From: Turneriella sp.
GTDB taxonomy: Bacteria > Spirochaetota > Leptospiria > Turneriellales > Turneriellaceae
Assembly: GCA_965279515.1 (NCBI GenBank)
Contig: CBDIID010000003.1
Span: forward strand, 2,432,001 to 2,496,000
Direction of reading: 5' to 3'
Length of the DNA: 64,000 bases
In this document: positions 12,860 to 51,671 of the stretch, one piece after another
How the letters are laid out: the number at the start of each line of letters is the position of its first letter
How positions within the stretch are numbered: the stretch's first letter is position 1
The notes under the pieces: model-generated
Told to the model about the DNA's origin: nothing
The model's input: only the letters and a program-made list of their open reading frames with translations
The model's database searches: none
Program-made: the position numbers and the translations under genes

Positions 12860-12931
12860 GCCCTCGTAGCTCAGTGGATAGAGCGTTGGTCTCCGAAGCC
12901 ATGTGCGCAGGTTCGATTCCTGCCGAGGGCA
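12860..12931 (+). tRNA. tRNA-Arg (anticodon CCG)
   Basis: Cloverleaf: acceptor GCCCTCG/CGAGGGC, D-arm GCTC..GAGC, anticodon loop CT-CCG-AA, T-arm GCAGG-TTCGATT-CCTGC. CCA is not encoded. Confidence 0.95.
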
Positions 12932-12933
12932 CA
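12919..12933 (+). repeat. attL-like direct repeat (tRNA-Arg 3' end), CCTGCCGAGGGCACA
   Basis: An identical 15-mer occurs at 51597-51611. Confidence 0.85.
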
Positions 12934-13022
12934 TATCGATGCTTCGACATTCGGCTTGCGGCATTACTCGGGATCGTCCCACTGCTTTTGCCCGCTTCGA
13001 TCTTGCGATTTGTATCGCTGGG

Positions 13023-13160
13023 CGCCCCCGTCTCATCCGCAATCCAGCACCGAAAGCCGTTGTTGTGCTCGAACTTGCGCAGAGGAACCGACTCGGTTTC
13101 TCTTCATCCTGTGCTGCGCGAAGACGCTTCTTTCGGAATGCCCGGCGAAAAGAGTTGCCT
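13023..13160 (-). pseudogene. Deletion-riddled remnant of a DUF3024-like gene (third tandem copy)
   Basis: Minus-strand blocks QLFSPGIPKEA / AAQDEEKPSRFL / KFEHNNGF / WIADETG match the 13635-14000 protein (QLFAPSIPKEA / AAKDEEQPSRFF / KFEFDNGF / WLADETG) in order but across frameshifts; the ATG has become AGG. Confidence 0.75.
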
Positions 13161-13178
13161 ATTGATTAGCCTACTACC

Positions 13179-13613
13179 TCACCATCCGGCACTGACTAAC
13201 ACTGCCAAAGCATCGCGCTCGATATCCGCGTCGGAAACCCGTCGGCGCTTTCCCGTCACCAGCCGCGAACGAAAGATGCCCGTGGCATCGTCCTGAAAAT
13301 GGCGCAGTACGGCTGGAAAGCGCTCTGCCGCTGGGGCCAGGGCAAAGCGCCGCCACTTGCGGCTCGCATCGATGCAGTAAAGGTGCCACTTGCCGTCTTG
13401 GTAGAGAAACTTGGCCGCATCACGGCCTGTGAAATCCCCGTTTTCCGCGACGAATTCTTCCGCAATGATAAACGCATTGCCGCGACGAAACCAGTAAATC
13501 CGATCTCTCTCTCCGCGGCGCTTTCTTTGCGCATGGCGCACGTATGCGTCGAGGTGTGCAGACACGATTACCATTAGGTCGGTAGGGATGGACGGGCGAA
13601 AGAGTGTAAGCAT
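13179..13613 (-). CDS. DUF3024-like protein (paralog 2, with C-terminal extension)
   Basis: AKFLYQDGKWHLYCIDASRKWRRF...DDATGIF resembles the DUF3024 pattern; paralogous to the adjacent gene. Confidence 0.65.
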   Translation of the reverse strand: MLTLFRPSIPTDLMVIVSAHLDAYVRHAQRKRRGERDRIYWFRRGNAFIIAEEFVAENGDFTGRDAAKFLYQDGKWHLYCIDASRKWRRFALAPAAERFPAVLRHFQDDATGIFRSRLVTGKRRRVSDADIERDALAVLVSAGW

Positions 13614-13634
13614 ATTTTCAATCTTGCTGCGGGC

Positions 13635-14000
13635 CTATCCCCTGAATATCCCGGTCTCATCCGCAAGCCAGTGCCGGAACACAGCATCAAAACTCTTCGC
13701 CGCCTTCGCAGGCACATACCTTCGCCAGGTACGGCTGGCGTCCAGACAGTAAAGCAGCCAGAAACCGTTGTCGAACTCAAACTTGCCCGAGTCGCGCCGT
13801 GTCAATTGACCGTCTTGTGTGACAAACTCTTCGGAAAGTATCACCGTCTTGCCCTTTCGCGCCCAGAAGAACCGACTTGGCTGCTCTTCATCTTTCGCTG
13901 CAGCGCGGCGTTTTTTCTCTACCCGCTTGCAGTAGGCATCGAGCCGTGTCATCGCGTCGGTGAAGGCTTCTTTCGGAATGGATGGCGCGAAGAGTTGCAT
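13635..14000 (-). CDS. DUF3024-like protein (paralog 1)
   Basis: GKFEFDNGFWLLYCLDASRTWRRY...ADETGIFRG. ATG at 14000 chosen by alignment with the paralog; it also avoids overlap with the upstream gene. Confidence 0.65.
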   Translation of the reverse strand: MQLFAPSIPKEAFTDAMTRLDAYCKRVEKKRRAAAKDEEQPSRFFWARKGKTVILSEEFVTQDGQLTRRDSGKFEFDNGFWLLYCLDASRTWRRYVPAKAAKSFDAVFRHWLADETGIFRG

Positions 14001-14016
14001 CGGTGTCAGTGTCAGC

Positions 14017-14610
14017 TTACTTAAACTGAATATCCCTTTGAATATCTTCAACGGACTTCATGACCGTTGCGTCCGCGATCTTCTCTTCGACGGAACCCGG
14101 GAAAGCAAAAGGCATGCCGAAGATTAGTAAAATCTGATTCAGCTGCGTCATAGGTTCGGTATATACGTATTCTTTTAAAACCTGATTTCCCTTGTATACT
14201 TTCACTTTGGTGACAATATCCTTACTGTTCCAGGAGGGAATGATGCCGACAGTGATAATACCGAGCCCGTTCAAAAAGCCGTTAAAAAAAGTATCCTTGG
14301 AAACCGGCTCCCATTTATACGTGATCAGGTAGCCTGTAGCCATACTGTCTTTATCCGTAATGCTCACCGACAGATTGGCCGCTTTAAAGTGTTTTTCAGC
14401 GGATTCTTTGAGTGCTTTTTCCTGAAAACTTCCGGCGATGCCGGCTTTCACATAGATGCTGACAGGCTGCTGTACTTTAGACTGAATTGGCGACAGCTTT
14501 TCCGGCGCCTGAATGTTGTGTCCGCGCCAGCCGATGCAATTTGCGACTAACAGAATAGCCCCAAACAGGCTAAAAAAGCCGTAACGCTTTAAAAAAGATC
14601 GGTTTTCCAC
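14017..14610 (-). CDS. Hypothetical lipoprotein
   Basis: GTG start after GGAG; lipobox LVANC; internal hydrophobic hairpin (GLGIITVGIIPSW, ILLIFGMPF) seen in leptospiral lipoproteins. Confidence 0.7.
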   Translation of the reverse strand: MENRSFLKRYGFFSLFGAILLVANCIGWRGHNIQAPEKLSPIQSKVQQPVSIYVKAGIAGSFQEKALKESAEKHFKAANLSVSITDKDSMATGYLITYKWEPVSKDTFFNGFLNGLGIITVGIIPSWNSKDIVTKVKVYKGNQVLKEYVYTEPMTQLNQILLIFGMPFAFPGSVEEKIADATVMKSVEDIQRDIQFK

Positions 14611-14630
14611 ATATTCTCCATAGTTTTCTC

Positions 14631-14648
14631 TTTGTATCTTATGATACC
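14631..14648 (-). promoter_or_regulatory. Repeated 18-bp palindromic motif TTTGTATCTTATGATACC (copy 1)
   Basis: Identical copy at 16279-16296; contains the inverted repeat GTATC-N4-GATAC; lies 20 nt upstream of the start at 14610. Confidence 0.6.
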
Positions 14649-14662
14649 TGTATATTCATCGC

Positions 14663-14731
14663 GCCCAATCGCTCGCTTACCTGAAGTTTTCGAAGGCAAC
14701 TTAGCCTTGCGTCAGGTAAGCGCGGTTGGGC
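14663..14731 (-). repeat. Integron attC-like site (degenerate R' box)
   Basis: Minus strand reads GCCCAAC...GATTGGGC with perfect 11-bp inner arms CGCTTACCTGA/TCAGGTAAGCG; it lies just after the stop of 14750-15478. Confidence 0.6.
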
Positions 14732-14749
14732 TGATGCGCGGCCGGGAGC

Positions 14750-15478
14750 TTACTTCCCTTTCTTCTTCGCTGCAGGTTTCTTGCCTGCTGCAGGTTTCGC
14801 CTCTTCGGCTGGTGCTGCATACGGATCAGCGTTTGTTGCGGCTGGTGCCGGCGCAGCATACGGATCTTTGGCGCTGTCGTTTGAAGATGTTGTTCCAAAC
14901 ACATAACCCGCACCAAACTGCGCATACAGACCAGACTTGAAATCACGCGTGCTGCCGACTCCGCCTATGTCAGCGCCGAATTCAAAAACCTCGTAAAGAA
15001 ACGTGCCTTTCAGAAAAACACTGTCTACAGGAAACACTTTGATACCGCCGCCTACAACAATGCCAGTACCAAAGCGGCTTGAACCCGTCACCTCCGCACC
15101 ATTCAGCGTTCCCTTAGTAGCGTATTTAATCTGCGAACCCGGGCTGAAGAAGAATGCAAACCGTGAAATGCGGTAGTTGAATTCGAAGAGCAAGCTCAGC
15201 ATATATTCCATCTGTGAAAAACCACTCAACTCGCCGCTGCTCGTAGTCGCCTTGCTGACCGTGTTTAAAAGCAGAGAATAATTCATGCCAAAATGGAAAC
15301 CCTGCTTAGTGGGTTCATCCGTAAATGAAATACCTCCGCCGAATTTGGTAAACTTCTGTGAAGGTGTCTTATACTCAGTTTCCTGATAGTTACCCAGAAC
15401 ACCCAGGCCGAAATTAGCAAACACCAGTTGTGGTGCGAGTAATGCAGCACACAGAATTAATTTTTTGATTTTTTTCAT
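14750..15478 (-). CDS. Outer-membrane beta-barrel protein with Pro/Ala/Lys-rich tail
   Basis: Signal peptide, about 8 amphipathic strands ending GAGYVF, then a tail with 2x DPYAAPA and KKPAAKKKGK. Confidence 0.65.
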   Translation of the reverse strand: MKKIKKLILCAALLAPQLVFANFGLGVLGNYQETEYKTPSQKFTKFGGGISFTDEPTKQGFHFGMNYSLLLNTVSKATTSSGELSGFSQMEYMLSLLFEFNYRISRFAFFFSPGSQIKYATKGTLNGAEVTGSSRFGTGIVVGGGIKVFPVDSVFLKGTFLYEVFEFGADIGGVGSTRDFKSGLYAQFGAGYVFGTTSSNDSAKDPYAAPAPAATNADPYAAPAEEAKPAAGKKPAAKKKGK

Positions 15479-15502
15479 ATCTTCTCCTATAACTTATTTT
15501 AA

Positions 15503-16255
15503 CTATTTTGCTTCTTTGAGCTTCGCAAAGATCAGATCAACCGTGCGCGCATAGACATGCTTCTGCTTGATTTTTGTGAAATTTGCAACATCACCGGCAC
15601 CCGTGACGTCGAGCGGCGGATCGATCGCACCGGCACCGCTAAAAATGCGTTCTCCCGTGCGGTCGTAGATCACAATACCCGTGCCCATAAGAGCCTTGTC
15701 CTGTTGAATAACAAACACAACCTTGCTGAACGACAGCGCAATCGCATCAACATTCAGTTTTTCGCAAAAATAGACCGCGAGTTTTGACAAGTCCGCTTTT
15801 TCCAGATGCTTGCCGAATTCACCCTCCGGCGCATCGATGAAATTCTTCTCTCCGCTGGCTTGTGTTACGGAAAACTCGTTTTTGTAGGCGGCAACCGGGA
15901 AATCTTTAAAACCATCGTTTTCAGCTGTTGCATACGCTTTTGTCAGTTGCTTGCCCGACAAAACCGTCGCGTTTAATTCTGTCGCCAGTTTTTTTGTCGC
16001 AATGTCGCGGTACTGATCCACCACACCGGCATCGACCTTATTGAGCTCGCCTGCTATTGCGGCAAATTTTGCCTCCGTGGCACCCTGCTGAAGGCCCGAC
16101 ATGCTTGTAACGGCAGCCTTTTCTATCAGCGTTTCCAGAAGCGCGATTTTTTTGATCGCTACCAGCTTCTCTTTCGAAGCCACGACCTTAACAGTCGAAC
16201 AGCCCATGAGCGCAAATAAGGCAACTGCGCCGGGAATCCATAGTCTTCTCTTCAT
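15503..16255 (-). CDS. Hypothetical lipoprotein
   Basis: Lipobox ALMGC; RBS GGGAG; alpha/beta mature region. Confidence 0.7.
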   Translation of the reverse strand: MKRRLWIPGAVALFALMGCSTVKVVASKEKLVAIKKIALLETLIEKAAVTSMSGLQQGATEAKFAAIAGELNKVDAGVVDQYRDIATKKLATELNATVLSGKQLTKAYATAENDGFKDFPVAAYKNEFSVTQASGEKNFIDAPEGEFGKHLEKADLSKLAVYFCEKLNVDAIALSFSKVVFVIQQDKALMGTGIVIYDRTGERIFSGAGAIDPPLDVTGAGDVANFTKIKQKHVYARTVDLIFAKLKEAK

Positions 16256-16278
16256 TCAATTCTCCCTTGATAAGTTTA

Positions 16279-16296
16279 TTTGTATCTTATGATACC
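16279..16296 (-). promoter_or_regulatory. Repeated 18-bp palindromic motif TTTGTATCTTATGATACC (copy 2)
   Basis: Identical to 14631-14648; lies 23 nt upstream of the start at 16255. Confidence 0.6.
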
Positions 16297-16541: not shown

Positions 16542-17669
16542 TCATTTCTCATACTCTATGTATGCATCAAACACCCATTGGTCTTTGCCGATTTCAACCC
16601 AATGTCCTTTCTTACCATCAATCTCTACATAATCACCAACTTGACCTACTGAAAGTTTAGTTCCCTTGGCAATGAGTCCAACTTTTTCTGCTTCTATGTT
16701 CGGCTTTTTTCGTACATTTAGGCCGCTTTGGGGCACCGCAGTGGCGCGCTGACTATTTTTTTCAAAACCCTGGAAGACTCTACGAAATTCTTCATTGTCA
16801 AATTTCTGGATGCAATACCAGTACTCAGTGCTGTCTGCCAGCGAAGGCACAAACCGTTCTTTACCGGCATATTCGCGCCGCTGTTTTATTGTGCCATGGC
16901 TGCGGAGTTCGCCAGAGTTAAGAAGGGTAAATTTGAAATTGATATTGAAGTCGACGTAGATATCGCTAAAGCCATAATGTTTCAGCTGAGCGGTTTCGCA
17001 AGATCTCCTGCATTCACCGGGTGTGCTCCATTTTTCCCAATCTACGCAAGCGTCTTTCAGAAAATTACCTTTTGGCAACTCCCGGCGACGACCACACAAG
17101 CCACTTGATCCATCCGCGCAACGTGAACATGGTGAGCCGTCTTTATAAATTCCGCTAACAACTAAGCTCTTACTATCATCTGTGTACCATCTGAGATCAC
17201 GCCATTCGTCGTGTTCACCCCAGCGTACAGCTCTGTGATTTGGCAAAAGCCAAAAAGAAGAACTCTGCGAAGCTGATAAATATATGTGTCCAGCATTCAA
17301 ATCCTTTAATGAATCTGAATTCAGACATTTGCTCTTATCAATATCATAATCTGGAACAAAGATATACCCAGCTTTATTCTCGTATTTAGCACTTATCCAA
17401 CGACCCCATGCGCCATTCTTTCTTTCAAAGTTACCAACTATGTTACCTTTTTCAACTTTCGTCCCCTTCGGAATATATGCGAGAATTTTCCGAGGCTGAC
17501 CATTAACAGAACTGATTCGTTTATCACCTATGTTCCAAAACTCTGTTTTTTCGCCAACGGTATAGTAACTGTCTGATTTTTCAGCTCGCAGGCAACATCC
17601 CAAGCTGATAAAAAAAAATATCTTTGTCAACTTTAGAAAAATTAACTTACTACGATTTCTACCGCCCAT
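16542..17669 (-). CDS. Exported SH3b-domain protein; candidate immunity protein of the upstream giant toxin
   Basis: C-terminal SH3b motif GLNVRKKPNIEAEKVGLIAKGTKL...GHWVEI...WVFDAY and a second SH3-like N-terminal segment; signal/lipobox-like SLGC; Cys-rich centre; start overlaps the giant gene stop; low GC. Confidence 0.75.
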   Translation of the reverse strand: MGGRNRSKLIFLKLTKIFFFISLGCCLRAEKSDSYYTVGEKTEFWNIGDKRISSVNGQPRKILAYIPKGTKVEKGNIVGNFERKNGAWGRWISAKYENKAGYIFVPDYDIDKSKCLNSDSLKDLNAGHIYLSASQSSSFWLLPNHRAVRWGEHDEWRDLRWYTDDSKSLVVSGIYKDGSPCSRCADGSSGLCGRRRELPKGNFLKDACVDWEKWSTPGECRRSCETAQLKHYGFSDIYVDFNINFKFTLLNSGELRSHGTIKQRREYAGKERFVPSLADSTEYWYCIQKFDNEEFRRVFQGFEKNSQRATAVPQSGLNVRKKPNIEAEKVGLIAKGTKLSVGQVGDYVEIDGKKGHWVEIGKDQWVFDAYIEYEK

Positions 17670-33765: not shown

Positions 33766-34638
33766 ATGCCCATGCAATTGATTAGATTTCTCTCCTTATC
33801 CGTGATAACCTCTGTTATGCTCGATGCTCAGGAAAAGAAGCCAGAAAAAAAGGCAGGAAAAGAAGGCGAGGGGTACGACTTCTTTCAGGAAGACGCGCTC
33901 AAAACGATGGAAAACGAGCTCGATACTTATGAAAAATCCCATGAAGACACCAAGGCCATCAAAGGAATGTTTATTCAGCGGAATTTTGACGAAAAGGAGA
34001 AAGATTCCGGCAAGAGAAAAGCACCTCCATTCTATCGAAATATTCTTGTTCGCAAAAAAGTAAAACTCCACCTCTCTGGTGGGGAAGTCATTCAGGGCGA
34101 AACCCCATTCAACGGGGATAAAATTACGATAATTTCTGAAAAAGACGGTAACAAGACAATCCATGAATTCCCTCGCTCTGAAATTACAACTCTTGAATTC
34201 TCCAAGTGGCAACCCTTCCGGGAAGCCACAGAACCGCTTCAGAACCTCGATTTTAAGGTTAAAAAGTATTATTACCTGCCTTCGGCGGCCAAACTCATTC
34301 TCGCGAGCGGGGCAAAAATCGAAGGGCAAATCGATCCGTTTGAAGTCTTGACCTTTCATATTCAAAGCGATACCGCCAAGTCGGCTTATGCAGCATATTT
34401 TTCGGACACCATGATTCCGACCAAAGATGCTAAAGACATCGCAGAATACCTGAAGGATAAGAATAAGCACAAAGCTGAGCTTGAATCCCTCGATTATAAG
34501 TGGCTGGTGGCAAATACCGCCGATAAGAAATACTACGAAAAAAATATGCCGAAACGGACGATTAAGAAGATAGAATTCATAGCGACCGTCGAGACTACCG
34601 GAAAAAATGAACCGCCCAAACCTTCACCGACCGAATAA
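33766..34638 (+). CDS. Hypothetical exported protein
   Basis: Signal-like N-terminus, charged body; first gene of a 3-gene overlapping operon. Confidence 0.7.
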   Translation: MPMQLIRFLSLSVITSVMLDAQEKKPEKKAGKEGEGYDFFQEDALKTMENELDTYEKSHEDTKAIKGMFIQRNFDEKEKDSGKRKAPPFYRNILVRKKVKLHLSGGEVIQGETPFNGDKITIISEKDGNKTIHEFPRSEITTLEFSKWQPFREATEPLQNLDFKVKKYYYLPSAAKLILASGAKIEGQIDPFEVLTFHIQSDTAKSAYAAYFSDTMIPTKDAKDIAEYLKDKNKHKAELESLDYKWLVANTADKKYYEKNMPKRTIKKIEFIATVETTGKNEPPKPSPTE

Positions 34639-35254
34639 CCTGAAACCTGCTTTATTCTTAGCGATAGCTTTTGTCAACCTCGCCCATGCGTGCAAGACTG
34701 AGGAGATTAAAGTGGTAAAGGTAAAAGAATCAGACCCTATTCCTTTGGCGACGGCGGCCGAAAATATGGTTTCGATCAGTACCGGAAGGGGTGTATTCTA
34801 CATTGATCGCTATGAGGCTTCTGAGCCGACACCAGGCGATTTTTTTTCCGTCCCAAACCAAACGCCAAAGACGAACGTAACGCAAGCTGAAGCGAAAACA
34901 ATCTGTGAGAGCCTCGGCAAACGGCTCTGCACTAGCCGCGAATGGGAGCTTGCATGCATCGGCGGTCATTTCTTGAAATACAGCTATGGCCATAAAAATA
35001 TTCCCGGCTTCTGCAACATCTCTGGCATACGCAATTCTCCTGCATACACAGGAGAATATACGAATTGTAAGTCGGATCTGGGGACCTTTGATCTGATCGG
35101 CAACGTCATGGAACTAACCGCAGACTTGTCGCCAGCGGGATTAGTCATTGCAAAGGGCGGTGACTACTCTACAAAAGAAGCGACGTGCTTTCAGGAATTT
35201 TTTGATCAACCTGTGGAAAAAAATGCAAAATTAGGATTTCGGTGCTGCAAATGA
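34607..35254 (+). CDS. Formylglycine-generating-enzyme (FGE-sulfatase/SUMF1) fold lipoprotein
   Basis: FYIDRYE, KRLCTSREWELAC, FDLIGNVME, KGG and GFRCC motifs; lipobox AHAC. Confidence 0.85.
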   Translation: MNRPNLHRPNNLKPALFLAIAFVNLAHACKTEEIKVVKVKESDPIPLATAAENMVSISTGRGVFYIDRYEASEPTPGDFFSVPNQTPKTNVTQAEAKTICESLGKRLCTSREWELACIGGHFLKYSYGHKNIPGFCNISGIRNSPAYTGEYTNCKSDLGTFDLIGNVMELTADLSPAGLVIAKGGDYSTKEATCFQEFFDQPVEKNAKLGFRCCK

Positions 35255-35796
35255 ATAAATATATCTTCTTTTTCGCTTCGTCATGCTTAATGTTAGAATG
35301 CAGTTCAGTAACTGTCACAAGTTATTACGACAAGAATACTTATAAAGACCCGGTTAAAGAAGTCGGCCTGGGATTTATCGAGGTCAGAAATCTCGATCTC
35401 AATACTTTTGTGAAAAAGAACCTTTACGATTCGATAAAATTCGAAATGGAAAAATTACGCTACCGCGTCAATGATCCCGAAACTATGAAAGCGGCTCGGA
35501 AGGCTTCAAATATAGAAAACGAAGAATTGCTCTCAGGAGCGGAAATATTTAGCCTGTCGAAAACCAGCAGTTTCGATCTTTACCTGCAAGGTTATGTGCA
35601 GGAGAACAAGGTCGGTGACGCTCTCTCCGAGGAACACCATTCTGTTATTGTCTTCTTTTTGTTTTCCCGCGATGGTAAAAAGGCGGGAGAAATACGGTAT
35701 TTCTCCAAAAAGAAAACTGTAGTTTCCGCCGAGAACCTTCAGGAAATGGCGCAAGGTGTAGTTCAGGAATTTCGCAAAACCGTACCGTCACTGTAA
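35251..35796 (+). CDS. Hypothetical lipoprotein
   Basis: ATGA overlap with the previous stop; signal ending MLEC; alpha/beta fold reminiscent of CsgG/LpoB-like lipoproteins. Confidence 0.65.
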   Translation: MNKYIFFFASSCLMLECSSVTVTSYYDKNTYKDPVKEVGLGFIEVRNLDLNTFVKKNLYDSIKFEMEKLRYRVNDPETMKAARKASNIENEELLSGAEIFSLSKTSSFDLYLQGYVQENKVGDALSEEHHSVIVFFLFSRDGKKAGEIRYFSKKKTVVSAENLQEMAQGVVQEFRKTVPSL

Positions 35797-42152: not shown

Positions 42153-43679
42153 CTAATTGTGAAAGAATAAGTAGTCGTTTAGCAGAGCATTACCCTGATT
42201 ATCTTTCGCTGTGCCCCCCGCTATCTTCAAGCGATGATACCCTGTGCCTGCCCAACCACGAATATAGACGCTCATAATCATTAAAGTGGCATCAAGCTGA
42301 ATATCAGTGATACCGACTGTTCCCGGACCACTAACAATGGCCGTATACGTTGTCGCCTGAACCAAGGATTGCAGATCCATGGGTCGATCAAAGTATACTT
42401 TTAATACGTGACGAAAATCTGTAGTTGCAGCCGTGTCGATATCTACTCTTTCGTCGACAATCAGGACCGAATTTTGGAGCAAACTCCCCGAATCCAAAAC
42501 TGCAGATAATGCCTGATTGTTGCAGACATCAGTAACTCCACCTACGCAGTTTGCGATCGCGGGACAAGTCGCAGGAGTTAGAGTACACGTTCCGGATGCT
42601 AGAATTGTATAAGCTTGTCTTACACCAGTAATTGTGGGCCGAATTGAATCAGCTGCGTTTGTAGTGAATTGATAGTTATAGTTCTGATTTAGAATATTAT
42701 TCGCAATATCCGTGGCTGAATTATTTACGGACAAAGTATACAAGGTTTCACTCTCCAATGCGGGTGAAAATGTTAAAGTCGCCACAGTCGATAAACCAAC
42801 AGTCGCAAAGACTTTTGAAAAACCTGCCGTTGGCGAAATGGTAATAGCGTTGGTCAGGGTGGTTGTGTTCATAAGTTCACTGAACGTAATCACAATCTGA
42901 TCGTTTCGGCTAATCAGGGGCGTTACCAAACCATTTTGTAAAGCGAGGGCACTCGGATTTGCCACCGTACTTGTAATCGTGGGTCTGACAAAATCAGTTC
43001 CGACGACAAAACTAATTGTCCTTCCCTGAAGAAGATTATTTCCGACTAAGTCCTGGACATTCGTGTTAATGCTTATCGTATAAACAGTCCCATTCAAAAG
43101 GTTCGATTGCGGGGTAAAAGTCACAGTCTCTCCGGTACCATTTACCGTGAAAGCACCAACGACGGAGGGCGTGATGGTTATACCCGGGATCAAAGTCGAT
43201 GGATTTACTGCCTCTGAGAAAACGAATGTAAATACTGAATTCGGCAAAATTCCGGTCTGACCATATACGGGGTTCGTTGATACAATCTGTGGTTTACCCG
43301 CATCTGGATTAACAGTAAAATTGATCTGAAAATCATCGCGGAGGTTATTGCCCTCACTATCTTCAGCTGACTTGCTGATCAATAAGGTATATGTCCTTCC
43401 GGTCGTGAGGGGGCCTCTGGGAATAAATCGCAGACGATTTCTTTCCCAGATAAACTGGCCTTTGGGGCGGTCCGTATCCGCAAAAAGACTGAAGGCTGTC
43501 TCCGTTTGCGAATAATCCATCGATTCAGAAAATTCAATCCAGACCTCCACGTTATTGCTGATTCCCGTAGCATTTTGGGTCGGGTAAGAAGCAGAAACTT
43601 CGGGAGGATTAAAGTCATCTCGGCAATTAAAACCAAGAAAAACTAATCCGAGAAGAACAATAAGGCTTGTTTTTTTCAC
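42153..43679 (-). CDS. Lipoprotein with tandem bacterial Ig-like (Big_5/SbsA-type) domains
   Basis: Lipobox GFNC; about 4 repeats of P.V....P....I...FSE.M...Y.L.I...A.D..GN.L. Confidence 0.85.
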   Translation of the reverse strand: MKKTSLIVLLGLVFLGFNCRDDFNPPEVSASYPTQNATGISNNVEVWIEFSESMDYSQTETAFSLFADTDRPKGQFIWERNRLRFIPRGPLTTGRTYTLLISKSAEDSEGNNLRDDFQINFTVNPDAGKPQIVSTNPVYGQTGILPNSVFTFVFSEAVNPSTLIPGITITPSVVGAFTVNGTGETVTFTPQSNLLNGTVYTISINTNVQDLVGNNLLQGRTISFVVGTDFVRPTITSTVANPSALALQNGLVTPLISRNDQIVITFSELMNTTTLTNAITISPTAGFSKVFATVGLSTVATLTFSPALESETLYTLSVNNSATDIANNILNQNYNYQFTTNAADSIRPTITGVRQAYTILASGTCTLTPATCPAIANCVGGVTDVCNNQALSAVLDSGSLLQNSVLIVDERVDIDTAATTDFRHVLKVYFDRPMDLQSLVQATTYTAIVSGPGTVGITDIQLDATLMIMSVYIRGWAGTGYHRLKIAGGTAKDNQGNALLNDYLFFHN

Positions 43680-45154
43680 GGATTACTCCTGAAAAACAAA
43701 GAATAATCGCTTTGCAAATAATTATTGCTCCCGTCTTTTACTCCGGTATTGGTTCCGATGATTTTCAATAAATAGACGTTATTGCCCAATTGTCCAAGGG
43801 ACAAGCTTAGAACGGTGCGCGGGACATTCCAGCTAAACTGAGTCATTGTACCTACCAAGGCGGAATCATTCCCCAGAAGTCTGGTAATCGAAATATTATC
43901 AGGCACAGATTCCACTAACATGGGAGCAGAAAAGGTAATCACAACTATACAATTCCAGGGTGGCACGACAGCACCGTAAGATAATGTAAATATGGGTATC
44001 AAAACGGTATTCGTGATTGCCGTGCCCGGCGACGGGCAACCAGCCCCCTGAACCACTGAAGCGATAGTCACGTATTGTGAATTTGGACCGTTGACTACAA
44101 AGCTTGTGGCAACCTGCGATAGTAAAGGATTGCCAAAAGCATCTTTTGCATTTTCTGTTACGGTAAGATAATATTCCCGCCCAGGCGTCAGCAAACCTGT
44201 TGGTTGAAACGTAAAACCGGCAAAACTGCCTAGCCAACTGAAGGAACCAGCGATCGTATTGCCAAAATGTCCGTCTACAATACTAAAGGAGCTTTGTGAA
44301 GGACTATAATCCATAGCTTCGTCGAAAGTGACAACAAAGCCTTCGTTTTTCTCAACAGTTGTTGCAGCAGGGCCGGGAAAGATCGCTGTTCCACCCGTTG
44401 TCTGTACCGTTAAAACCTGAGGCTTAACAAAATCTGTACCCGCCTTAAACCGGAAAACATGATCTGACACCATGGGCATGCCACGGGCATCCTTGGCAGT
44501 TTTCGCAATCGTGACCGCGTATTGTTGATTAAAGGTTAATCCCTGAAAGGGTGTGTACGTGAGCACGGTATTTCCTACGCTCCAGGTAAACAGACCGGTA
44601 ACAGAGGGACTTAACTGAAAAGCAGCTTCTGTTTCAGTAATGGACATGGGTCTACTAAACGTGATGTCGATTGGAGTATTTAATGCCACGCTCATATTCA
44701 AGTCTATGGGATTAGTCGTCACGACTCGTGGCGGAGTTAGATCCGTGCCAGCATAAAAATGGGCGAGAAATGTCGTTAGATATTTGCTTTCGTCCTTTGC
44801 CTGAGCAGAAGGCAATAATTTTACCGTGTATCTTCCCCCATATTCAAGATCGCCTTCGAGCTGGTAGTACATCGTATTCCCGCTCCACACAAAAGCACCC
44901 TTCGGAATCGGCGAATCAGACGTCAGTGAGAACGCATTCTGCGTCAGTTCATGATTCATCTCCTTGTCGAACTTCAGATATATATTCGGCCGGACGTCGG
45001 TAAATCCGGTTCTTTCGGCAGGATAAGAATCAATGACCAGAGGTGATTCCAGGGATTTTAGCGCCGCGCAGGTGAGAAGAAATCCCGTGACCATGCCCGC
45101 GCAAAGCCATCTGAAAACGGATCGGGTTAAATTTCCTTTCGACTTCGTCAGCAT
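43676..45154 (-). CDS. Lipoprotein with tandem bacterial Ig-like (Big_5/SbsA-type) domains
   Basis: Lipobox LLTC; repeated PRVVTTNP...ITFSRPM...AKDARGMPM units; paralog of the adjacent gene. Confidence 0.85.
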   Translation of the reverse strand: MLTKSKGNLTRSVFRWLCAGMVTGFLLTCAALKSLESPLVIDSYPAERTGFTDVRPNIYLKFDKEMNHELTQNAFSLTSDSPIPKGAFVWSGNTMYYQLEGDLEYGGRYTVKLLPSAQAKDESKYLTTFLAHFYAGTDLTPPRVVTTNPIDLNMSVALNTPIDITFSRPMSITETEAAFQLSPSVTGLFTWSVGNTVLTYTPFQGLTFNQQYAVTIAKTAKDARGMPMVSDHVFRFKAGTDFVKPQVLTVQTTGGTAIFPGPAATTVEKNEGFVVTFDEAMDYSPSQSSFSIVDGHFGNTIAGSFSWLGSFAGFTFQPTGLLTPGREYYLTVTENAKDAFGNPLLSQVATSFVVNGPNSQYVTIASVVQGAGCPSPGTAITNTVLIPIFTLSYGAVVPPWNCIVVITFSAPMLVESVPDNISITRLLGNDSALVGTMTQFSWNVPRTVLSLSLGQLGNNVYLLKIIGTNTGVKDGSNNYLQSDYSLFFRSNP

Positions 45155-45156
45155 AG

Positions 45157-46788
45157 CTACTCCTCGCGCACCTTTTGCCGCGTTCTTTTCGGTTTTTTCT
45201 TGATAATCTGTGTCTTGCTTAAGTCGGTTTCTACGCCTTCCTCAATTGATTCTCCCGAGGGGTTATCCACCTGCGGAGATTCTGGCACTGATTCAGCTGC
45301 CGCTGGGCGCGCCTTAGATAGCTCAGCTACTATCTTTTTCCAGCGGTCTTCGCTATAGACTTTCGTCCCATCGTTTAATGCTTCTACGTTAGAGGTTGCA
45401 ACAATATCCTGATCAGACAAACCTTGCAGGATTTCATACTCATCACTATATCTGTTGCCGATCACGATTTCCTTCTTGAAAGCTGTCCCATTCTTTAATA
45501 CGAAACAGTAGCCATTTTTCTCTAGTTTTCCGGGTTTTCGATCCGTGATGATTATTGCTGTTTCAGGGATCGCCATAGCATTACCCTTCGACGCGAGTAC
45601 GATTTGAGTTCTGACAAACATACCCGGCCTAAAAATATGTTCAGGATTGCTGGCCTTAATCTTCACTTCGGCCGTCCGCGTCTGTGGCGCAAGGACAGGG
45701 GATATGACCGTTACCGTGCCGGTGAAAAATTTACCAGGTAAGGCATCCACGCCAAATTTAACCTCAAGGCCCTTCTTTATTTGGAAAAGATTCTCCTCGC
45801 TCACTGAAGTAACCAAATAAACGGGATTTGTACCAACGATTACGAAGACCGGGGTATCCGGTTTAACCATTTCGCCAATATCCACCTGACGAGCTGCAAT
45901 AACACCGTCGATAGGAGTGCGAATCGTTGCTTCCTTCAGAAGTAGCGCGGAGATTTTTTCCTGGGCTTCCGCAGATTTGATACTGGCTTCAGCAATGTTG
46001 AGTTCCGACCGCTCGATGGTCGTATTTAACTCCATAACAGATTTTTTCCATTCGGCTTTTGTTTTCGGCCGCTCGTATCCCGCTTTAAGGAGGTCTTCGA
46101 CCCGATAACCGACAGCGTTCATCTTTTGATCCAACATCAAACCATAGTATCGCGATTTTGTATTCATAATCTCGACTTGCTGGGCATTGTACTCTAAAGG
46201 TGTAACCCCATCAATATCGAGCAAAGTCTTCTTCGCTTTTTCATTAATCAAATCGTTATCGTATTTCGCCTTAACGGCCAAGACATCGATCTTCTCCTTC
46301 TCCATCGCCCAAACACGCTTTTCGACGTTACGCTTCGCAACATTATACTTTTCCTTGGATAGCTTCAACTGGGCTGTTGCCGAATTTAGGCTATTCTGAG
46401 CCTGAAGATGCTCCATCTCGAGGCGCTGCTTGTCCAATAGCGCAATGACCTCCCCTTTGGTCACAAAATCACCTACATCTTTCGTAAAAGAAGCGAGTCT
46501 CGCGTTCGCGAGGGATGTTATCTGCGCTTTCTGAATCTGGCTTACAGTCCCGGGGGTATCGAGAATATTTACGAGATTCTTTCGGTATATTTTCAGATAC
46601 TTGGTATCGCTGAAAATTGGCTCGTCGACCCGATATGTCTTAGGTTTCTTATAAACCAGAAAAGTCAGCAGGATCGCCGGCACAGCGAGTAGGGCCACGT
46701 AAATCAAGAGACGCAATTTGGGCGGCAGCTTTCTCAGCAGATTGTTGAGAATTGCCAGGGGCTTAAAGATTATTTTCAGGATATTCAT
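45157..46788 (-). CDS. RND periplasmic adaptor (membrane fusion protein) with long helical hairpin
   Basis: N-terminal TM helix, VGDFVTKGEVIALLD and IRTPIDGVI lipoyl halves, and TRT...RPGMF. Confidence 0.9.
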   Translation of the reverse strand: MNILKIIFKPLAILNNLLRKLPPKLRLLIYVALLAVPAILLTFLVYKKPKTYRVDEPIFSDTKYLKIYRKNLVNILDTPGTVSQIQKAQITSLANARLASFTKDVGDFVTKGEVIALLDKQRLEMEHLQAQNSLNSATAQLKLSKEKYNVAKRNVEKRVWAMEKEKIDVLAVKAKYDNDLINEKAKKTLLDIDGVTPLEYNAQQVEIMNTKSRYYGLMLDQKMNAVGYRVEDLLKAGYERPKTKAEWKKSVMELNTTIERSELNIAEASIKSAEAQEKISALLLKEATIRTPIDGVIAARQVDIGEMVKPDTPVFVIVGTNPVYLVTSVSEENLFQIKKGLEVKFGVDALPGKFFTGTVTVISPVLAPQTRTAEVKIKASNPEHIFRPGMFVRTQIVLASKGNAMAIPETAIIITDRKPGKLEKNGYCFVLKNGTAFKKEIVIGNRYSDEYEILQGLSDQDIVATSNVEALNDGTKVYSEDRWKKIVAELSKARPAAAESVPESPQVDNPSGESIEEGVETDLSKTQIIKKKPKRTRQKVREE

Positions 46789-46789
46789 A

Positions 46790-48211
46790 TCAGTTATTAT
46801 AATTGATTAGTCCCAAATAGTCTGCCTTTACTCCCATGGTAGTTTCAAGCACACCGATTGAAATCAGATAATCGGCTTTGGCTTTTATAAAGTTTTGTGC
46901 AACGCCAAGGTATTCGATCTCGGCAAGCATTAAGTCAACACGCTTCAATTGGCCTAATCTTACCTTTGCGGTTTGAATCTGAATTCTCTCAGACAGTACT
47001 TTCTCAGCCTCTTCTGCGATTTTGAAGATTTCGAAGTTGTGCTCTGCAGAGATCAAAGCAGTTTTCACTTCTATCGCCAGCTGGTCTGGTAGCCTGTCCC
47101 TTTCGAAGAGGCCTCGTTTTAGATTCATCCCTGATTCGATCTTCTGTCTACGGTAAGAAATATCCTCGAAAACACCAATCGACGTGTCCGTACTGTATCC
47201 TTGCGTATATCCGTTTGTCGCGACATTGCTTCGCGGCGTTTCCCGAACCATGTTGCCAAACATGTTTGAAGTCACAATAACGCCTACCCCCCATCCGTTT
47301 TCCTGCGGAAAAAACCGGTCTCCCGACAGATTGTAATTACCCGTTAGGGAAATACGAGGATAGAAATAACTTTCAGCAATTTCATACTCCTTTCTGAGGC
47401 GCATTGTATCAACACGTCTTTGTTCAACTTCTGGCCTGTTCGACATGGTAATAGCGTACAGATCTTCGAATTTTCTATCGATTTCCCTGAAGGTAAGCTT
47501 GTGTAAGGTTTCTTTATCCAGAACCAGTTCGACGCTTGGATTCAGGCGAAGCCCCTGCTTGAAGGTTAAATCCAGGGTTTCGTAATCACGCTTCTCTTTA
47601 ATCAAACTTGTTACTATCTGCTTATATTTGGAAACCACATCGAGGTAATCAATTTTTGTCAGAGTACCGACTTCAAATTCTTTCTGACTGAGCTTGGCCT
47701 GAAGTTCTGATCGTTCGGCGGAGCGCTGTCGGGATTCAACCGTGTAGATCGCCTGCAACAGGCGGAAAAAATTACTTCTGGTATCGAGAATGACCTTATT
47801 TCGCAACTGCCGGTATTTATAGTTGGCAAGAGTTACGTCCAATTTACTCAAATCGTATGCCAATGACATTCTGCCGCCGTCATAGACGGGCTGCGTAACA
47901 TCGACTCGCATTTGATGGCTGCGCGTATCAAAATCACGAATTCTAACTTGCTCGTTATTCAGGTACGAGAATCGCAATTGGGGCAAAAACGCCCGCCATT
48001 TTTCGATAATATTTGCCTGCATCATGCTTCGCTCAGAACTCTGAAGCTGAAGATCAATGCTGTTAGTTTGGGCTAATTGTTCCGCTATCTTCAAATCCAT
48101 GGGCATACGATTCACATCTTGAGTGAATAGCATGCTTGCCGAAAGCAGATAACCCCCTATGTAAAGGGGCCATCGGCTGCAAAAATCTAATTTGTCCGGA
48201 CTATTGGCCAA
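46790..48211 (-). CDS. TolC-family outer membrane channel protein
   Basis: FLPQLRFS, QPVYDGG, NRPEV and YFYPRISLTG motifs; two-repeat OEP pattern. Confidence 0.88.
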   Translation of the reverse strand: MANSPDKLDFCSRWPLYIGGYLLSASMLFTQDVNRMPMDLKIAEQLAQTNSIDLQLQSSERSMMQANIIEKWRAFLPQLRFSYLNNEQVRIRDFDTRSHQMRVDVTQPVYDGGRMSLAYDLSKLDVTLANYKYRQLRNKVILDTRSNFFRLLQAIYTVESRQRSAERSELQAKLSQKEFEVGTLTKIDYLDVVSKYKQIVTSLIKEKRDYETLDLTFKQGLRLNPSVELVLDKETLHKLTFREIDRKFEDLYAITMSNRPEVEQRRVDTMRLRKEYEIAESYFYPRISLTGNYNLSGDRFFPQENGWGVGVIVTSNMFGNMVRETPRSNVATNGYTQGYSTDTSIGVFEDISYRRQKIESGMNLKRGLFERDRLPDQLAIEVKTALISAEHNFEIFKIAEEAEKVLSERIQIQTAKVRLGQLKRVDLMLAEIEYLGVAQNFIKAKADYLISIGVLETTMGVKADYLGLINYNN

Positions 48212-48235
48212 GGATCTGATCTCCGTCTGCTAATT

Positions 48236-48853
48236 TCATTTATCCCGGACTGCTTCCAATACCAGACGTCTTGCCTTGATTTTTTCGGCCCGCTCCGTAA
48301 GCTTATGTTGTACCAATAGGGCTTCGTAGCCTCGGTAGGCCGTCGCCAGTTCCAGTTCGGACATTAGAACTTTTTGATACTCAACCATAGCCTGGCGTAA
48401 GTTACCTGTCTTTGCGTAAAACCTTGCCAACTCGACATGCATGGCAAAGTCTTCAGGATGATTATTCAAACCATGCAGCAGATAACTTTCAGCCTGAGCT
48501 TCTGTTTTCTTTTCCGTCATCGCAATGCGCGCAAGCCAAAGCAACGCCCCTTGATGACCAGCTTCTTTTTTGAGAATAGCCGAGAATACCTGCTCGCTTT
48601 CTTTATACTTTTTGGTGTAGAAGAAAATTTTTCCCTTTAGCACTTGCGCTGGCAAATAGGCCGCATATGCTTTTATGATTTTTTCAGCACTTTCCAGCGA
48701 ACTATCAAACTTTCTCTCGATAAAATCCTGGTTTGCCTGGAAAAGATCTTTCTCGATAGCCGGTGGAATTTTTTGAACCGTCTTTTCTCCACAATAACTG
48801 AAGATAAGAATGACCAACAGTGTGATGATTTGCGAAATTCCGATTTTTTTCAT
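48236..48853 (-). CDS. TPR-repeat lipoprotein
   Basis: Lipobox FSYC; several TPR-like helix pairs (AQVLKGKIFFY, ALLWLARI, HVELARFYAKTG). Confidence 0.8.
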   Translation of the reverse strand: MKKIGISQIITLLVILIFSYCGEKTVQKIPPAIEKDLFQANQDFIERKFDSSLESAEKIIKAYAAYLPAQVLKGKIFFYTKKYKESEQVFSAILKKEAGHQGALLWLARIAMTEKKTEAQAESYLLHGLNNHPEDFAMHVELARFYAKTGNLRQAMVEYQKVLMSELELATAYRGYEALLVQHKLTERAEKIKARRLVLEAVRDK

Positions 48854-49842
48854 TTAAGCCTCTCTTCGCTACTCAAGCGAATTCTTCCGATGATTTTCTC
48901 TCCTGATGTCCTAATTCGATTCAAAACCGATTTTATGATGGCATCTAACCTGAGAGAGAAAAGCAGATAAATCATGTACATCAGCGGAATGAGATTCGTC
49001 ACTAGACCGAATTTAGCTGCTGGCAACAGACTCTTCTGAAGTTGGCTATCCGCATCCGAAATCAGACTATTCAGCATTTTGGCGGAGATTCCGGATGGTG
49101 ATTGCGCATAGGCCAGATTCAAAGTTTCTTTGAGATTTTGTGAGGTCCGCCTCTGGTATGCGCTGATGTCGACAACACTCCAAGTCGCCGAGGCTACCAT
49201 TATGAGATAAAACCCAGCCACTAAATGTGCAGCCCATCTCCATCCCGTAATACTAATAATGCCAAGTGCCGCGCTGCAAACCACCAGCGTGATACTGACA
49301 ACTCGCGCAACCTCCCCTTTGAAGATGCGCGCAAATAGATCCACAGCGGGAATTTTGGCAAATATCATCGGGATACTCGTTACCGCCGCCGTAACCAAGA
49401 GAATTCCGATGAGTTTCTGAAGTGGTCTGGATGTATCAAATCGCATGGGCACTAAATTGGGCGAGCTGTCAACGATGGCATCTGACAGATGGGCTGATCT
49501 TTTATTGAAGAAAAGATACAAAAACGGGACAAATAGGAGGAAAACGCTAATCCATTGGGATATGAATCTCAGCACCTCTTCAAACCAAGTCAACCGTTTA
49601 CCTTTGGTGTTTTTCCGAATGTTATAACCGAACAACCACATACCCATTGTTTGACCTTTAAGAAACAGTCTCGATGCAAAATAGGTGAGAAACACTCCAC
49701 CCAGGAAGGACAAGAGGATAACAGCCTTATTTGTGAGCCATGAAGCCGGGATGAAAATTGAAGCGACATCTAACAATAACCGGAAGATGGCAAGGTCTGT
49801 TATCGTCGATAAAAACCGGATCCAGGGTGAAACATTCTGCAT
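48850..49842 (-). CDS. RDD-family membrane protein with C-terminal TM extension
   Basis: PWIRFLSTITDL, GQTMGMWLFG, LRF and HLSDAI RDD motifs. Confidence 0.8.
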   Translation of the reverse strand: MQNVSPWIRFLSTITDLAIFRLLLDVASIFIPASWLTNKAVILLSFLGGVFLTYFASRLFLKGQTMGMWLFGYNIRKNTKGKRLTWFEEVLRFISQWISVFLLFVPFLYLFFNKRSAHLSDAIVDSSPNLVPMRFDTSRPLQKLIGILLVTAAVTSIPMIFAKIPAVDLFARIFKGEVARVVSITLVVCSAALGIISITGWRWAAHLVAGFYLIMVASATWSVVDISAYQRRTSQNLKETLNLAYAQSPSGISAKMLNSLISDADSQLQKSLLPAAKFGLVTNLIPLMYMIYLLFSLRLDAIIKSVLNRIRTSGEKIIGRIRLSSEERLK

Positions 49843-49892
49843 GATTTAGTGGCTTTTCCTTGGCGTTATCCAATTCTAATATCTCCTGTCCA

Positions 49893-49920
49893 ATATCGAC
49901 GACAGAGAAGCCTAACTTAA
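49893..49920 (-). promoter_or_regulatory. Sigma-28 (FliA)-like promoter
   Basis: TAAGTTAG-N11-GTCGATAT, 50 nt upstream of the RDD-TolC-RND operon start. Confidence 0.45.
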
Positions 49921-49998
49921 AAATCCGCGAGGACAGAAAAGAACAATGTGTATGCTAACCCAATTAACTATAAGTCAGATGGCGATCGACTTAAGGGG

Positions 49999-51387
49999 TC
50001 AGGATTTGAATTCAAATTCTCGGATGAGATGATCTAAGGCAGGATCATGTGACAATAATGCGGCCTGATCGGATAAAACCTCTATTAGGTCATCGCAAAT
50101 CAATTGGGTTATTCTTTCCAAAGATATGGCCTGAGATATGGGGTTATCGCTGTCTATGCTTGCTTCCTCTACTTCAAAAGCTACGCTTGAAATCCGATGA
50201 TTATTGATTAGGATTGCGGTTGATTCTGGTTGAAGGCGGCTATTAAATTCGATAGAGATTTCTTCGATAATCGTGCCTGTCGCCTGTATGGCCTTCATCC
50301 TACTTAAATTTACCGCAATACCCATGGCAACTTCATTCCCTACAAAGTAATCGTTCCAGAGTGTCCTGCCTAACTGCAGCTTAACGCGATTTTCAAGTTC
50401 AATCCGCTTCTCTTCCCTTTGGATGAACTCGGCATGTATTTCCAGGTGACCCGCATCCGTAGGCTCAACTACGTCTGATAAAAAGCCGGCTGCAAAGACA
50501 GCGCCACCGAATGCTACCAAGAATGCATTGGGAAAACCCGGAAAAAAAGATAGAACAACAAAAAAAGCGCCAATCAACATCGCCTTTCGGCGGTCTTCAA
50601 AGAGCATTTCCCGGAAATTCAGCTTGGCAACCCTTTTGGTGGCAAGTTGCGAGAGCCATTCTCTGATCGCAAAAAGATTGAGTGCTATCCCAGGCAAGAG
50701 ACATAAGACAGTGCTCACTATCAAAAGAGCCGAGGTTCTGATGGATTTCCCTAATGAATCCGGTGTAAAATGATCGCGATTCCATACTCCAAGAATCAAT
50801 GCGAAACACATAAATAAAGGGAATACATACAATTCGATCTTCGCTGTGCTTAGGAAGAACAAAGGAATTTTAGAACCTTGGCGAAAATCAGATTTCGATA
50901 AAATCTTTTCATCGGATTCTTCCAATTTCTCTATTTGAGGAAAATTTAATTCATTCCTGACCTGGATTTGCACATGAATATCATTTACAACTCGCTTAAT
51001 GGTCGCAAGGGATAAAAATCCAAGAGTTAGGTAAGTTGTGACCGCAATGGTCAGGTTTGATTCAAGGGTTTGGAAGTAAAAAAAGTCCGTTATTTTCCGA
51101 ATAATCTGACCGTCAAAGTTGGGGCCTGCAAGGCCGATCTTACGAACCGATGCGCCTAACATCATCATGCGCAATGTAAGTGTAAAAAAGCCAGCTACCG
51201 TCAGCCAGTAATAACGTGTATTTGGTTGAATTATCAGACTTGCAAGAGTAAAGATAACGGTACTAAAAACCGCAAAAAACAACAAGAAATCGAAGACCAC
51301 CGAAGGCATTGGGAGCAATAACATCATCGCTGATGGGAAAAAGCACAAGAAATAAGAGAATCTTTTTTGATCGGCCCAAGAATGCAT
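49999..51387 (-). CDS. Highly divergent, truncated FlhA/SctV (FHIPEP family) paralog
   Basis: Collinear FlhA-like blocks MMLLLPMPSVVFDFLL, LRMMMLGASVRKIGLAGPNFDGQII, LSFFPGFP, VKLQLG, NSRLQPESTAILIN and LICDDLIEVLSDQAALL. The conserved RFTLDAMPGKQM core is absent. Confidence 0.7.
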   Translation of the reverse strand: MHSWADQKRFSYFLCFFPSAMMLLLPMPSVVFDFLLFFAVFSTVIFTLASLIIQPNTRYYWLTVAGFFTLTLRMMMLGASVRKIGLAGPNFDGQIIRKITDFFYFQTLESNLTIAVTTYLTLGFLSLATIKRVVNDIHVQIQVRNELNFPQIEKLEESDEKILSKSDFRQGSKIPLFFLSTAKIELYVFPLFMCFALILGVWNRDHFTPDSLGKSIRTSALLIVSTVLCLLPGIALNLFAIREWLSQLATKRVAKLNFREMLFEDRRKAMLIGAFFVVLSFFPGFPNAFLVAFGGAVFAAGFLSDVVEPTDAGHLEIHAEFIQREEKRIELENRVKLQLGRTLWNDYFVGNEVAMGIAVNLSRMKAIQATGTIIEEISIEFNSRLQPESTAILINNHRISSVAFEVEEASIDSDNPISQAISLERITQLICDDLIEVLSDQAALLSHDPALDHLIREFEFKS

Positions 51388-51401
51388 GCGTACCTATTAC
51401 A

Positions 51402-51429
51402 TTATCGTGATTCTCTTGCCTAAAATTCA
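51402..51429 (-). promoter_or_regulatory. Sigma-28 (FliA)-like promoter (weaker)
   Basis: TGAATTTT-N12-CACGATAA upstream of the FlhA-like gene. Confidence 0.35.
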
Positions 51430-51596
51430 ATCGTCATGGTTTTTTTTGAATACCTGCTGGATTTCAAAGCGTAAATTGGCCCGTAAGCACCTAAAACCCC
51501 CTAAAATCAAGAAACAAACTGACCAAACGCTAGGAGAAGTTTCCGAATCTGCAGTGCGTGAAGCAGGGAAGAGAATCAGCAGATTTCCAATTTCCG

Positions 51597-51611
51597 CCTG
51601 CCGAGGGCACA
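51597..51611 (+). repeat. attR-like direct repeat of the tRNA-Arg 3' end
   Basis: CCTGCCGAGGGCACA, identical to 12919-12933. Confidence 0.85.
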
Positions 51612-51660
51612 CGATGTGCTGAGCGCCGCCGCTGGCACGGACGCCATCTTCGCGGCGGCG

Positions 51661-51671
51661 CGAGGGCACAT
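51661..51671 (+). repeat. Second, shorter copy of the tRNA-Arg 3' end (CGAGGGCACAT)
   Basis: Matches 12924-12934; lies 50 nt beyond the first attR copy. Confidence 0.55.

Follow-up and report, generated by a model that had tools for sequence, protein, structure and literature searches.

The described family closest to the proteins considered here is TIGR04388 (Lepto_longest), which comprises very long proteins of Leptospirae with a HINT domain near the C-terminus. Pumps of the resistance-nodulation-division (RND) type take their substrates from the periplasm, and loss of the integrase gene is common in decayed genomic islands. For polymorphic toxin systems, the accessible part of Zhang et al. 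(2012, PMC3482391) names the type II, V, VI and VII secretion systems (T2SS, T5SS, T6SS and T7SS), PVC, TcdB/TcaC, PrsW and MuF as export routes, and mentions neither RND, TolC nor Leptospira. The locus described here lies in a stretch of 64,000 nucleotides from Turneriella sp. (GCA_965279515.1, contig CBDIID010000003.1, positions 2,432,001 to 2,496,000), hereafter called the window. NCBIfam matches likewise place the host in the spirochaete class to which Leptospira belongs. Positions 12934-51596 of the window are a true 38.7-kb insertion in the 3′ end of tRNA-Arg(CCG), without a recombinase gene. The island carries a gene for a protein of 4,790 aa, hereafter the giant protein, and a cassette encoding two RND transporters, two Big_5 lipoproteins, a periplasmic adaptor, a TolC-family channel and a TPR protein, with two weakly SurA-like proteins encoded nearby. 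The island boundary itself is ordinary, i.e. that of a tRNA-anchored genomic island which is apparently immobile now; what may be new is a giant family that resembles polymorphic toxins and is tightly linked to an RND/TolC cassette, an association of which no description was found in the literature as covered by titles and the beginnings of abstracts, subscription papers lying largely outside the search. An earlier sequence-only reading of the window had not remarked on this cargo, which is more important than the boundary.

Linkage of the cassette to the giant genes was observed at the level of loci and of genomes. In a first survey, the cassette flanked the giant gene in four of seven loci of family f8. 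A survey of upstream regions was then based on 40 further giant genes picked for contig room, 39 of which existed; three with less than 10 kb were excluded. The full cassette was present in the 20 kb upstream of the giant in 21 of the remaining 36 loci, and a partial one in four. By comparison, RND and Big_5 genes occurred together in just one of 243 20-kb windows of the Turneriella genome, and this was the island itself. Among 301 genomes of the phylum, 59 carried both a giant gene and the cassette marker (the Big_5 lipoprotein pair), seven the giant gene only, 14 the marker only and 221 neither. When six weak giant matches confined to the N-terminus and three partial Big_5 matches were dropped, these counts became 57, 3, 13 and 228, and after removal of the 22 genomes used for alignments 35, 3, 13 and 228. 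The set of RND, adaptor, TolC, Big_5 and TPR genes is thus tightly linked to the giant family across Spirochaetota. Several observations weigh against so close a tie. No upstream cassette was found in 11 of the 36 loci (ten of these 11 lie in genomes that carry the Big_5 pair elsewhere), 13 genomes have the marker and no giant match, and two incomplete assemblies, G001 (84% complete) and G008 (86%), contain close giant genes and no marker. Also, related genomes are not independent, so that the co-occurrence test overstates the association. Within the order, the marker was found in none of 33 other genomes, many of them incomplete.

The Big_5, TPR and small lipoprotein genes (42153-48853 and 35242-35796) matched PHROGs 15875, 22370 and 27687, which suggests that the cassette lies in some region annotated as phage or prophage. 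The Big_5 protein gave no match among phages (INPHARED) and partial matches only among plasmids, and a scan of genome contigs with the second RND transporter gave no match. A tree of RND proteins had supports of 0.35-0.55 and did not resolve the cassette RNDs as a single clade.

For the function of this linkage we propose an explanation in which, as a whole, confidence and doubt are about balanced. A signal-like hydrophobic segment was present in 109 of 119 relatives with complete N-termini and in none of 119 internal controls, as counted by a hydrophobicity rule and not by a signal-peptide predictor. The Sec pathway would carry the giant protein to the periplasm, the chaperone-like and Big_5 lipoprotein partners would hold it there, and the RND pair, the adaptor and TolC would move it across, or display it at, the outer membrane. 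Judged from gene content, this route is put forward with equal weight for and against. The island cassette would also serve in trans the second giant gene of the genome, which has no cassette of its own. That the cassette represents an undescribed spirochaete-wide secretion system, namely a proton-driven RND machine exporting Sec-delivered polymorphic toxins of 250-550 kDa from the periplasm, is proposed tentatively, the doubts slightly prevailing. Here too there are points on the other side. RND pumps are known for small molecules, the clefts through which substrates enter look too narrow to admit a chain of 4,790 aa, and we are aware of none that transports a large protein. The part of PMC8277102 that was available likewise contains no such example.

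A competing explanation is that the cassette is an accessory and not the conduit of the toxin: its substrate would be a lipid, a glycan or a small molecule, or it would build an envelope platform anchoring the giant rod, while the giant protein would leave by type II secretion, in vesicles or on lysis. Every component does match small-molecule RND pump families, and 13 genomes bear the marker without a giant match. As judged by eye, one Asp in transmembrane helix 4 (TM4) is kept in each of 52 aligned cassette RND rows, which is pump-like, and a Lys in TM10 is present in two rows. The AcrB-type proton relay consists of two TM4 Asp and the TM10 Lys, and the cassette RNDs depart from this pattern. 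An accessory role is, however, made rather unlikely by linkage in both directions across many families, and by the long insert of the adaptor and the presence of additional lipoproteins and chaperone-like proteins, all of which suit the handling of a protein. In addition, no biosynthetic genes recurred in the cassette.

The giant protein itself received no call from Pfam or NCBIfam. Its N-terminus matched TIGR04388 with 23.2 bits (E 2e-5), below the cut-off of 45 bits, and six of 28 members of the family alignment also matched weakly. At 50% identity the family comprised 184 representatives; of ten that were looked up, four had Spirochaetota names, two were named 'bacterium' and four were unnamed. 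Ten copies from eight genomes, one of them an orphan fragment in G008, had a common N-terminal or middle region and mostly different C-terminal tips, and 66 long relatives fell into 45 C-terminal clusters, some of which may be due to truncation at contig ends. The same pattern was observed within the genome: a paralogue at C3:2675-2688 kb was 93% identical to the window protein over the first 300 aa and 20% identical over the last 290 aa. The module containing this paralogue (C3:2669600-2688300) encodes a protein of 4,840 aa with a different tip bearing DUF7587, together with two DUF3024 genes; it was without cassette, integrase or tRNA repeat, and in four of five relatives the genes bordering it are separated by about 20-30 bp. 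DUF3024 genes and a common non-coding segment of about 250 bp also recur in congeners next to giant-gene fragments or genes for small exported proteins. PT-HINT was detected in four of eight C-termini scanned (four of the seven homologues and not the window copy), while a regular expression for the HINT motif gave no match in the 66 long relatives and was uninformative. The genes downstream of the giants varied with the tip. In G008 and G044, distant N-termini were combined with a common C-terminus (32% identity) followed in both cases by a MORN protein, MORN repeats being easily aligned.

The tip of the window protein looks papain- or C39-like. In the ESM Atlas it scored 0.90-0.92, with all ten best family matches in one clan; the top six Foldseek matches were proteases of the IdeS/Mac-1 type, and residues Q4589, C4602, H4702 and D4722 were visible by eye as a possible set. 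The assignment depends on ESM features and on sub-threshold Foldseek matches (E 0.013-0.08) to a poor model with a predicted local distance difference test score (pLDDT) of 47, which counts against reading too much into it. The gene overlapping the 3′ end of the giant gene encodes an exported SH3 protein, which fits a target of the tip outside the cytoplasm. As far as domain architecture can tell, the giant protein is probably an interbacterial polymorphic toxin with a papain-like tip that would act outside the cytoplasm and whose effect the neighbouring SH3 protein, itself exported, would neutralize; cells nearby would be harmed by the tip, and kin protected by the gene next to it. Alternatively, the giant protein could be a structural or adhesive surface filament whose variable enzymatic tips serve in feeding or host contact. 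The N-terminal 700 aa were modelled as nearly all long helices (pLDDT 80, predicted template modelling score 0.38) with no Foldseek match at E<=0.001 and no usable match in the ESM Atlas, no toxin-type domain was matched by Pfam at the window tip, and the sister family TIGR04388 is labelled as a structural protein. Such a filament is nevertheless improbable, since the PT-HINT release domains, the tips exchanged together with downstream genes and the orphan fragment of G008 are hallmarks of polymorphic toxins. In the available part of a preprint (bioRxiv 10.1101/2021.10.19.465003), a Leptospiraceae-specific tip, PT8, possibly borne by these giants or by TIGR04388 proteins, was shown to be toxic, and neither RND nor TolC is mentioned.

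Literature searches for TIGR04388 by name, for Leptospira with 'putative large structural protein' or 'pretoxin HINT', and for combinations of Leptospira, largest protein, intein, toxin and efflux all returned nothing. The cargo points to a system of interbacterial competition in about one-fifth of the sampled Spirochaetota (60 of 301 genomes), a phylum for which no such system was found described. If the cassette is the export route, the range of RND cargo would be widened and a secretion pathway added. Moreover, the island documents horizontal transfer of the complete system into an order in which no other sampled genome has the marker.

The boundaries of the island are marked by a 15-bp direct repeat, CCTGCCGAGGGCACA, present at 12919-12933 and 51597-51611 with no third copy in the 4.9-Mb genome. 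This bears out the sequence-only reading, which had placed the repeat at these positions and would have had to give it up as a boundary had it been a dispersed one. The left copy is the 3′ end of tRNA-Arg(CCG) (12860-12932), which is intact and single-copy. Among the 39 tRNAs of the genome no other 3′ end has so long a distant copy, the runner-up being a 14-mer 66 kb from tRNA-Glu. By chance, about 0.005 such 15-mers are expected per tRNA within 200 kb, or 0.18 over the 39 tRNAs, so that the duplication alone is not decisive and outside evidence was needed. The question was settled by an empty site in G001, another species of the genus, where an orthologue of the kinase gene at window positions 10309-12798 is followed by tRNA-Arg(CCG), about 190 bp and the orthologue of the gene at 51724 (79% identity). 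Seven more genes follow in window order (about 10 kb of right-flank synteny), and the DNA to the right of 51611 aligns with that immediately behind tRNA-Arg(CCG) in G001. This tRNA was present in ten of 13 congeners, and none of the congener loci listed had the block of the window behind it. It had no match in G002, G011 and G009, of which two are near-complete and one is incomplete, and in G011 a different gene comes after that for the kinase. In each of four sequencing runs from one study the right junction was spanned by a single contig, which excludes misassembly.

Base composition agreed in part with the claim that an AT-rich island gives way to a GC-rich chromosome at the right repeat. 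The claim held for the right half of the island, with a G+C content (GC) of 44.3% across 32100-51596 vs 55.5% to the right of the island, and failed for the left half (12934-32100), where 51.5% stood against 52.3% in the left flank; the sharp shift occurs at the right repeat only. GC at third codon positions placed the genes of the right half at the 2nd to 12th percentile and the giant gene at the 24th. A frameshifted 45-bp scrap of giant gene on the minus strand at 12974-13018, 40 bp from the tRNA and about 87% identical to 20927-20971, indicates that the left end of the island has been rearranged.

No recombinase was called in the island by Pfam, NCBIfam or PHROGs. Six-frame searches of the island through stop codons with profiles of serine and tyrosine recombinases gave a best E of 0.36, compared with 1e-203 for the tRNA-Glu island as positive control; the absence of a recombinase gene noted previously thus extends to remnants. 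Elsewhere in the genome there are four tyrosine recombinases far from the site and one large serine recombinase, located at tRNA-Glu. In G008, the reading frame of a large serine recombinase runs into the very tRNA-Arg(CCG) used by the island. A metagenome scan with this enzyme yielded one locus, with a 90% identical enzyme at tRNA-Arg(ACG); near-identical serine recombinases can thus be observed at two different tRNA-Arg genes. Of 12 Recombinase-domain matches in the order, nine abutted a tRNA 3′ end, one lay against a tRNA-end copy and the remaining two had no tRNA within 1.5 kb, the tRNAs targeted by the family being those for Arg, Asp, Asn, Glu and Ser. At these sites a CGAAC-like motif, situated about 13-14 bp past the tRNA, mirrors the T-loop. 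Far ends were located for four serine-recombinase islands (the tRNA-Glu island of this genome, G007-Glu, G002-Asp and G033-Asn), and all four had a short tRNA-end repeat and a T-loop-like hexamer whose distance from the end is 22 bp and not 17, i.e. 5 bp further outward. For the LI/A118 integrase, the part of PMC3783163 that was available describes a zinc-ribbon motif lying 5 bp further out in attP than in attB. The hexamer was missing from the second G033 copy and from two distal G023 copies. For the recombinase loci of G030 and G027, searches revealed no distal copy of the tRNA end. Nor could the far end of the G008 island be located, that 86% complete assembly containing one copy of the repeat.

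As a best guess on weak evidence, the insertion may have been made by a tRNA-targeting large serine recombinase like that of G008, which would later have been deleted together with its end of the element; such a deletion would leave the island fixed. Comparison of sites and enzymes gives this loss, and with it the fixation, an evenly poised standing. Two features of the site tell against it: at the corresponding offset the window has TTTCCA, a weak signature matching four of six positions (background 0.037; five of seven, 0.016), and no left-arm motif occurs at the expected place, left-arm similarity having p values of 0.04 and 0.40 in two comparisons. It is also conceivable that the island never had a recombinase of its own, having been inserted, or still being movable, by an enzyme acting in trans, or having been transferred whole by homologous recombination from a relative. 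No remnant of a recombinase is detectable, and the second giant module of the genome is likewise an integrase-less insertion between genes that are adjacent in four of five relatives. Even so, we consider an island without its own enzyme rather unlikely, because the sole serine recombinase of the genome serves tRNA-Glu and gave no blastp match to the Arg-targeting enzyme of G008, and the tyrosine recombinases are distant from the site. In contigs of the four runs no loose end was listed at the right attachment site (attR), which was thus unbranched, although contigs drop rare variants and cannot show rare excision. The sequence-only reading had left the island either fixed or mobilized in trans; mobilization in trans found no positive support, and the fixed state is retained with the same balanced confidence as the loss of the recombinase.

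Two further arrangements were observed at tRNA genes. The 66-kb tRNA-Glu island of this genome (C3:633000-699500) has an intact large serine recombinase with its frame running into the tRNA, a second fragment resembling the C-terminus of this recombinase at 660335-660493 and a right-end arm like the left arm. In G002 (C1:1080000-1139300), two elements lie in tandem at tRNA-Asp, namely a prophage-like one of 40 kb and a second, recombinase-bearing one, gene roles having been assigned by eye.

A second, shorter repeat, CGAGGGCACAT, lies at 51661-51671; this 11-mer has three copies in the genome and its 10-mer 18. The segment 51603-51671 folds as a hairpin (-39.2 kcal/mol, z -3.4), both ends of which resemble the tRNA end. 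Hairpin units of about 60 bp were found behind tRNA-Arg(CCG) in six of ten congeners: one each in G003, G005 and G006, an interrupted unit in G010, two in G001 and four tandem copies in G013. A profile built solely from units of five relatives recovered the window unit at E 8e-6 among 22 genome-wide matches at E<=0.01, three of which adjoin other tRNAs. The second repeat is thus chromosomal, being the end of a dispersed hairpin unit which the insertion moved to the far side. Members of this family contain GGATG, some copies lie beside tRNA genes and tandem amplification was seen in G013. The second repeat had previously been taken as a mark of tandem integration or the scar of a mostly deleted element; tandem islands at one tRNA are known in the genus (G002, tRNA-Asp), yet a scar of a second element has almost no chance of being the right explanation, given the unit behind the same tRNA in relatives and the 21 further copies in the genome.

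Positions of the features are given in Table 1, for which the signal peptides of the three small exported proteins at 14017-16255 were read by eye. A close relative of the FlhA-like protein (49999-51387, about 22% identity to true FlhA) was found in none of 33 genomes of the order. The small contigs C1 and C2 of this genome consist of tandem repeats of units of about 23.5 kb and 6.6 kb, respectively; C1 carries ordinary chromosomal-type genes, so that both may be assembly artefacts.

Table 1. Features of the island and its borders in the window
Feature	Position	Strand	Remarks
tRNA-Arg(CCG)	12860..12932	+	Intact, integration target, single copy
Left 15-bp repeat copy, core of left attachment site (attL)	12919..12933	+	3′ strands of T-stem and acceptor stem
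Giant-gene remnant, 45 bp, frameshifted	12974..13018	-	About 87% identity to 20927-20971
Two DUF3024 genes (13179-13613, 13635-14051)	13179..14051	-	Another pair flanks the second giant module of the genome
Three exported-protein genes, 197, 242 and 250 aa	14017..16255	-	First: weak sub-cut-off matches to Leptospira lipoprotein families
375-aa signal-peptide protein, C-terminal SH3_3	16542..17669	-	Overlaps stop of giant gene; candidate immunity protein
Giant protein, 4,790 aa	17659..32031	-	Signal peptide, helical conserved N-terminus, variable C-terminus with putative papain/C39-like domain
Two paralogous membrane-anchored proteins, 207 and 256 aa	32211..33611	-	Weak likeness to SurA-type chaperone domain (E 0.005 to HP_0175)
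290-aa exported protein, FGE-sulfatase-domain lipoprotein, LIC10494-like lipoprotein	33766..35796	+	
Two RND transporters (AcrB/AcrD/AcrF family), 1048 and 1071 aa	35788..42146	-	
Two lipoproteins, three Big_5 domains each	42153..45154	-	Cassette marker; invariant Cys19
Periplasmic adaptor, TolC-family channel, TPR protein	45157..48853	-	Adaptor: helical insert of about 180 aa between lipoyl halves
RDD-family protein and divergent 462-aa FlhA-like protein	48850..51387	-	Outside conserved cassette
TTTCCAA, possible mimic of the T-loop, shifted outward by 5 bp relative to the tRNA, as at ends of serine-recombinase islands	51584..51590	+	Weak
Right 15-bp repeat copy, attR core	51597..51611	+	
Chromosomal hairpin unit, about 60 bp	51603..51671	+	Dispersed family
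Lsa36-family gene	51724..52860	+	First chromosomal gene past island; directly after tRNA in G001

Compared with known systems, the island agrees with tRNA-anchored islands of the integrase-less, fixed type in its short repeat of a tRNA 3′ end, the intact tRNA, the empty site in a relative and its foreign composition, and differs from them in nothing essential. It may be related to elements of large serine recombinases, in view of the G008 enzyme at the same tRNA and of a weak match, four in six, to the motif found 5 bp outward on the element arm of the congeners' islands; it differs in having no enzyme gene convergent on the tRNA and in the misplaced left-arm motif. The giant family resembles polymorphic toxin systems (PMC3482391) in the large protein with a conserved N-terminus and swapped C-terminal domains, the HINT release domains, the adjacent candidate immunity gene and the orphan fragments, and is set apart in that no trafficking domain of a known kind, such as Rhs or haemagglutinin, was called. 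To TIGR04388 the giants are weakly similar at the N-terminus; they score below the cut-off, are longer (mostly 2,400-5,000 aa), occur phylum-wide and are tied to the cassette. Like the cassette, tripartite pumps with two different RND subunits (MdtABC-TolC) have a pair of RND paralogues encoded in a cluster with an adaptor and an outer-membrane factor; the cassette adds two Big_5 lipoproteins, TPR and chaperone-like proteins and the long adaptor insert, retains a single TM4 Asp, mostly lacks the TM10 Lys, and shows linkage to a giant protein. Type I secretion (HlyB-HlyD-TolC) also places an adaptor and TolC beside a very large substrate. The cassette, in contrast, has an RND and not an ABC transporter, and the giant protein carries an N-terminal signal peptide, so that its export would be a two-step process starting from the periplasm.

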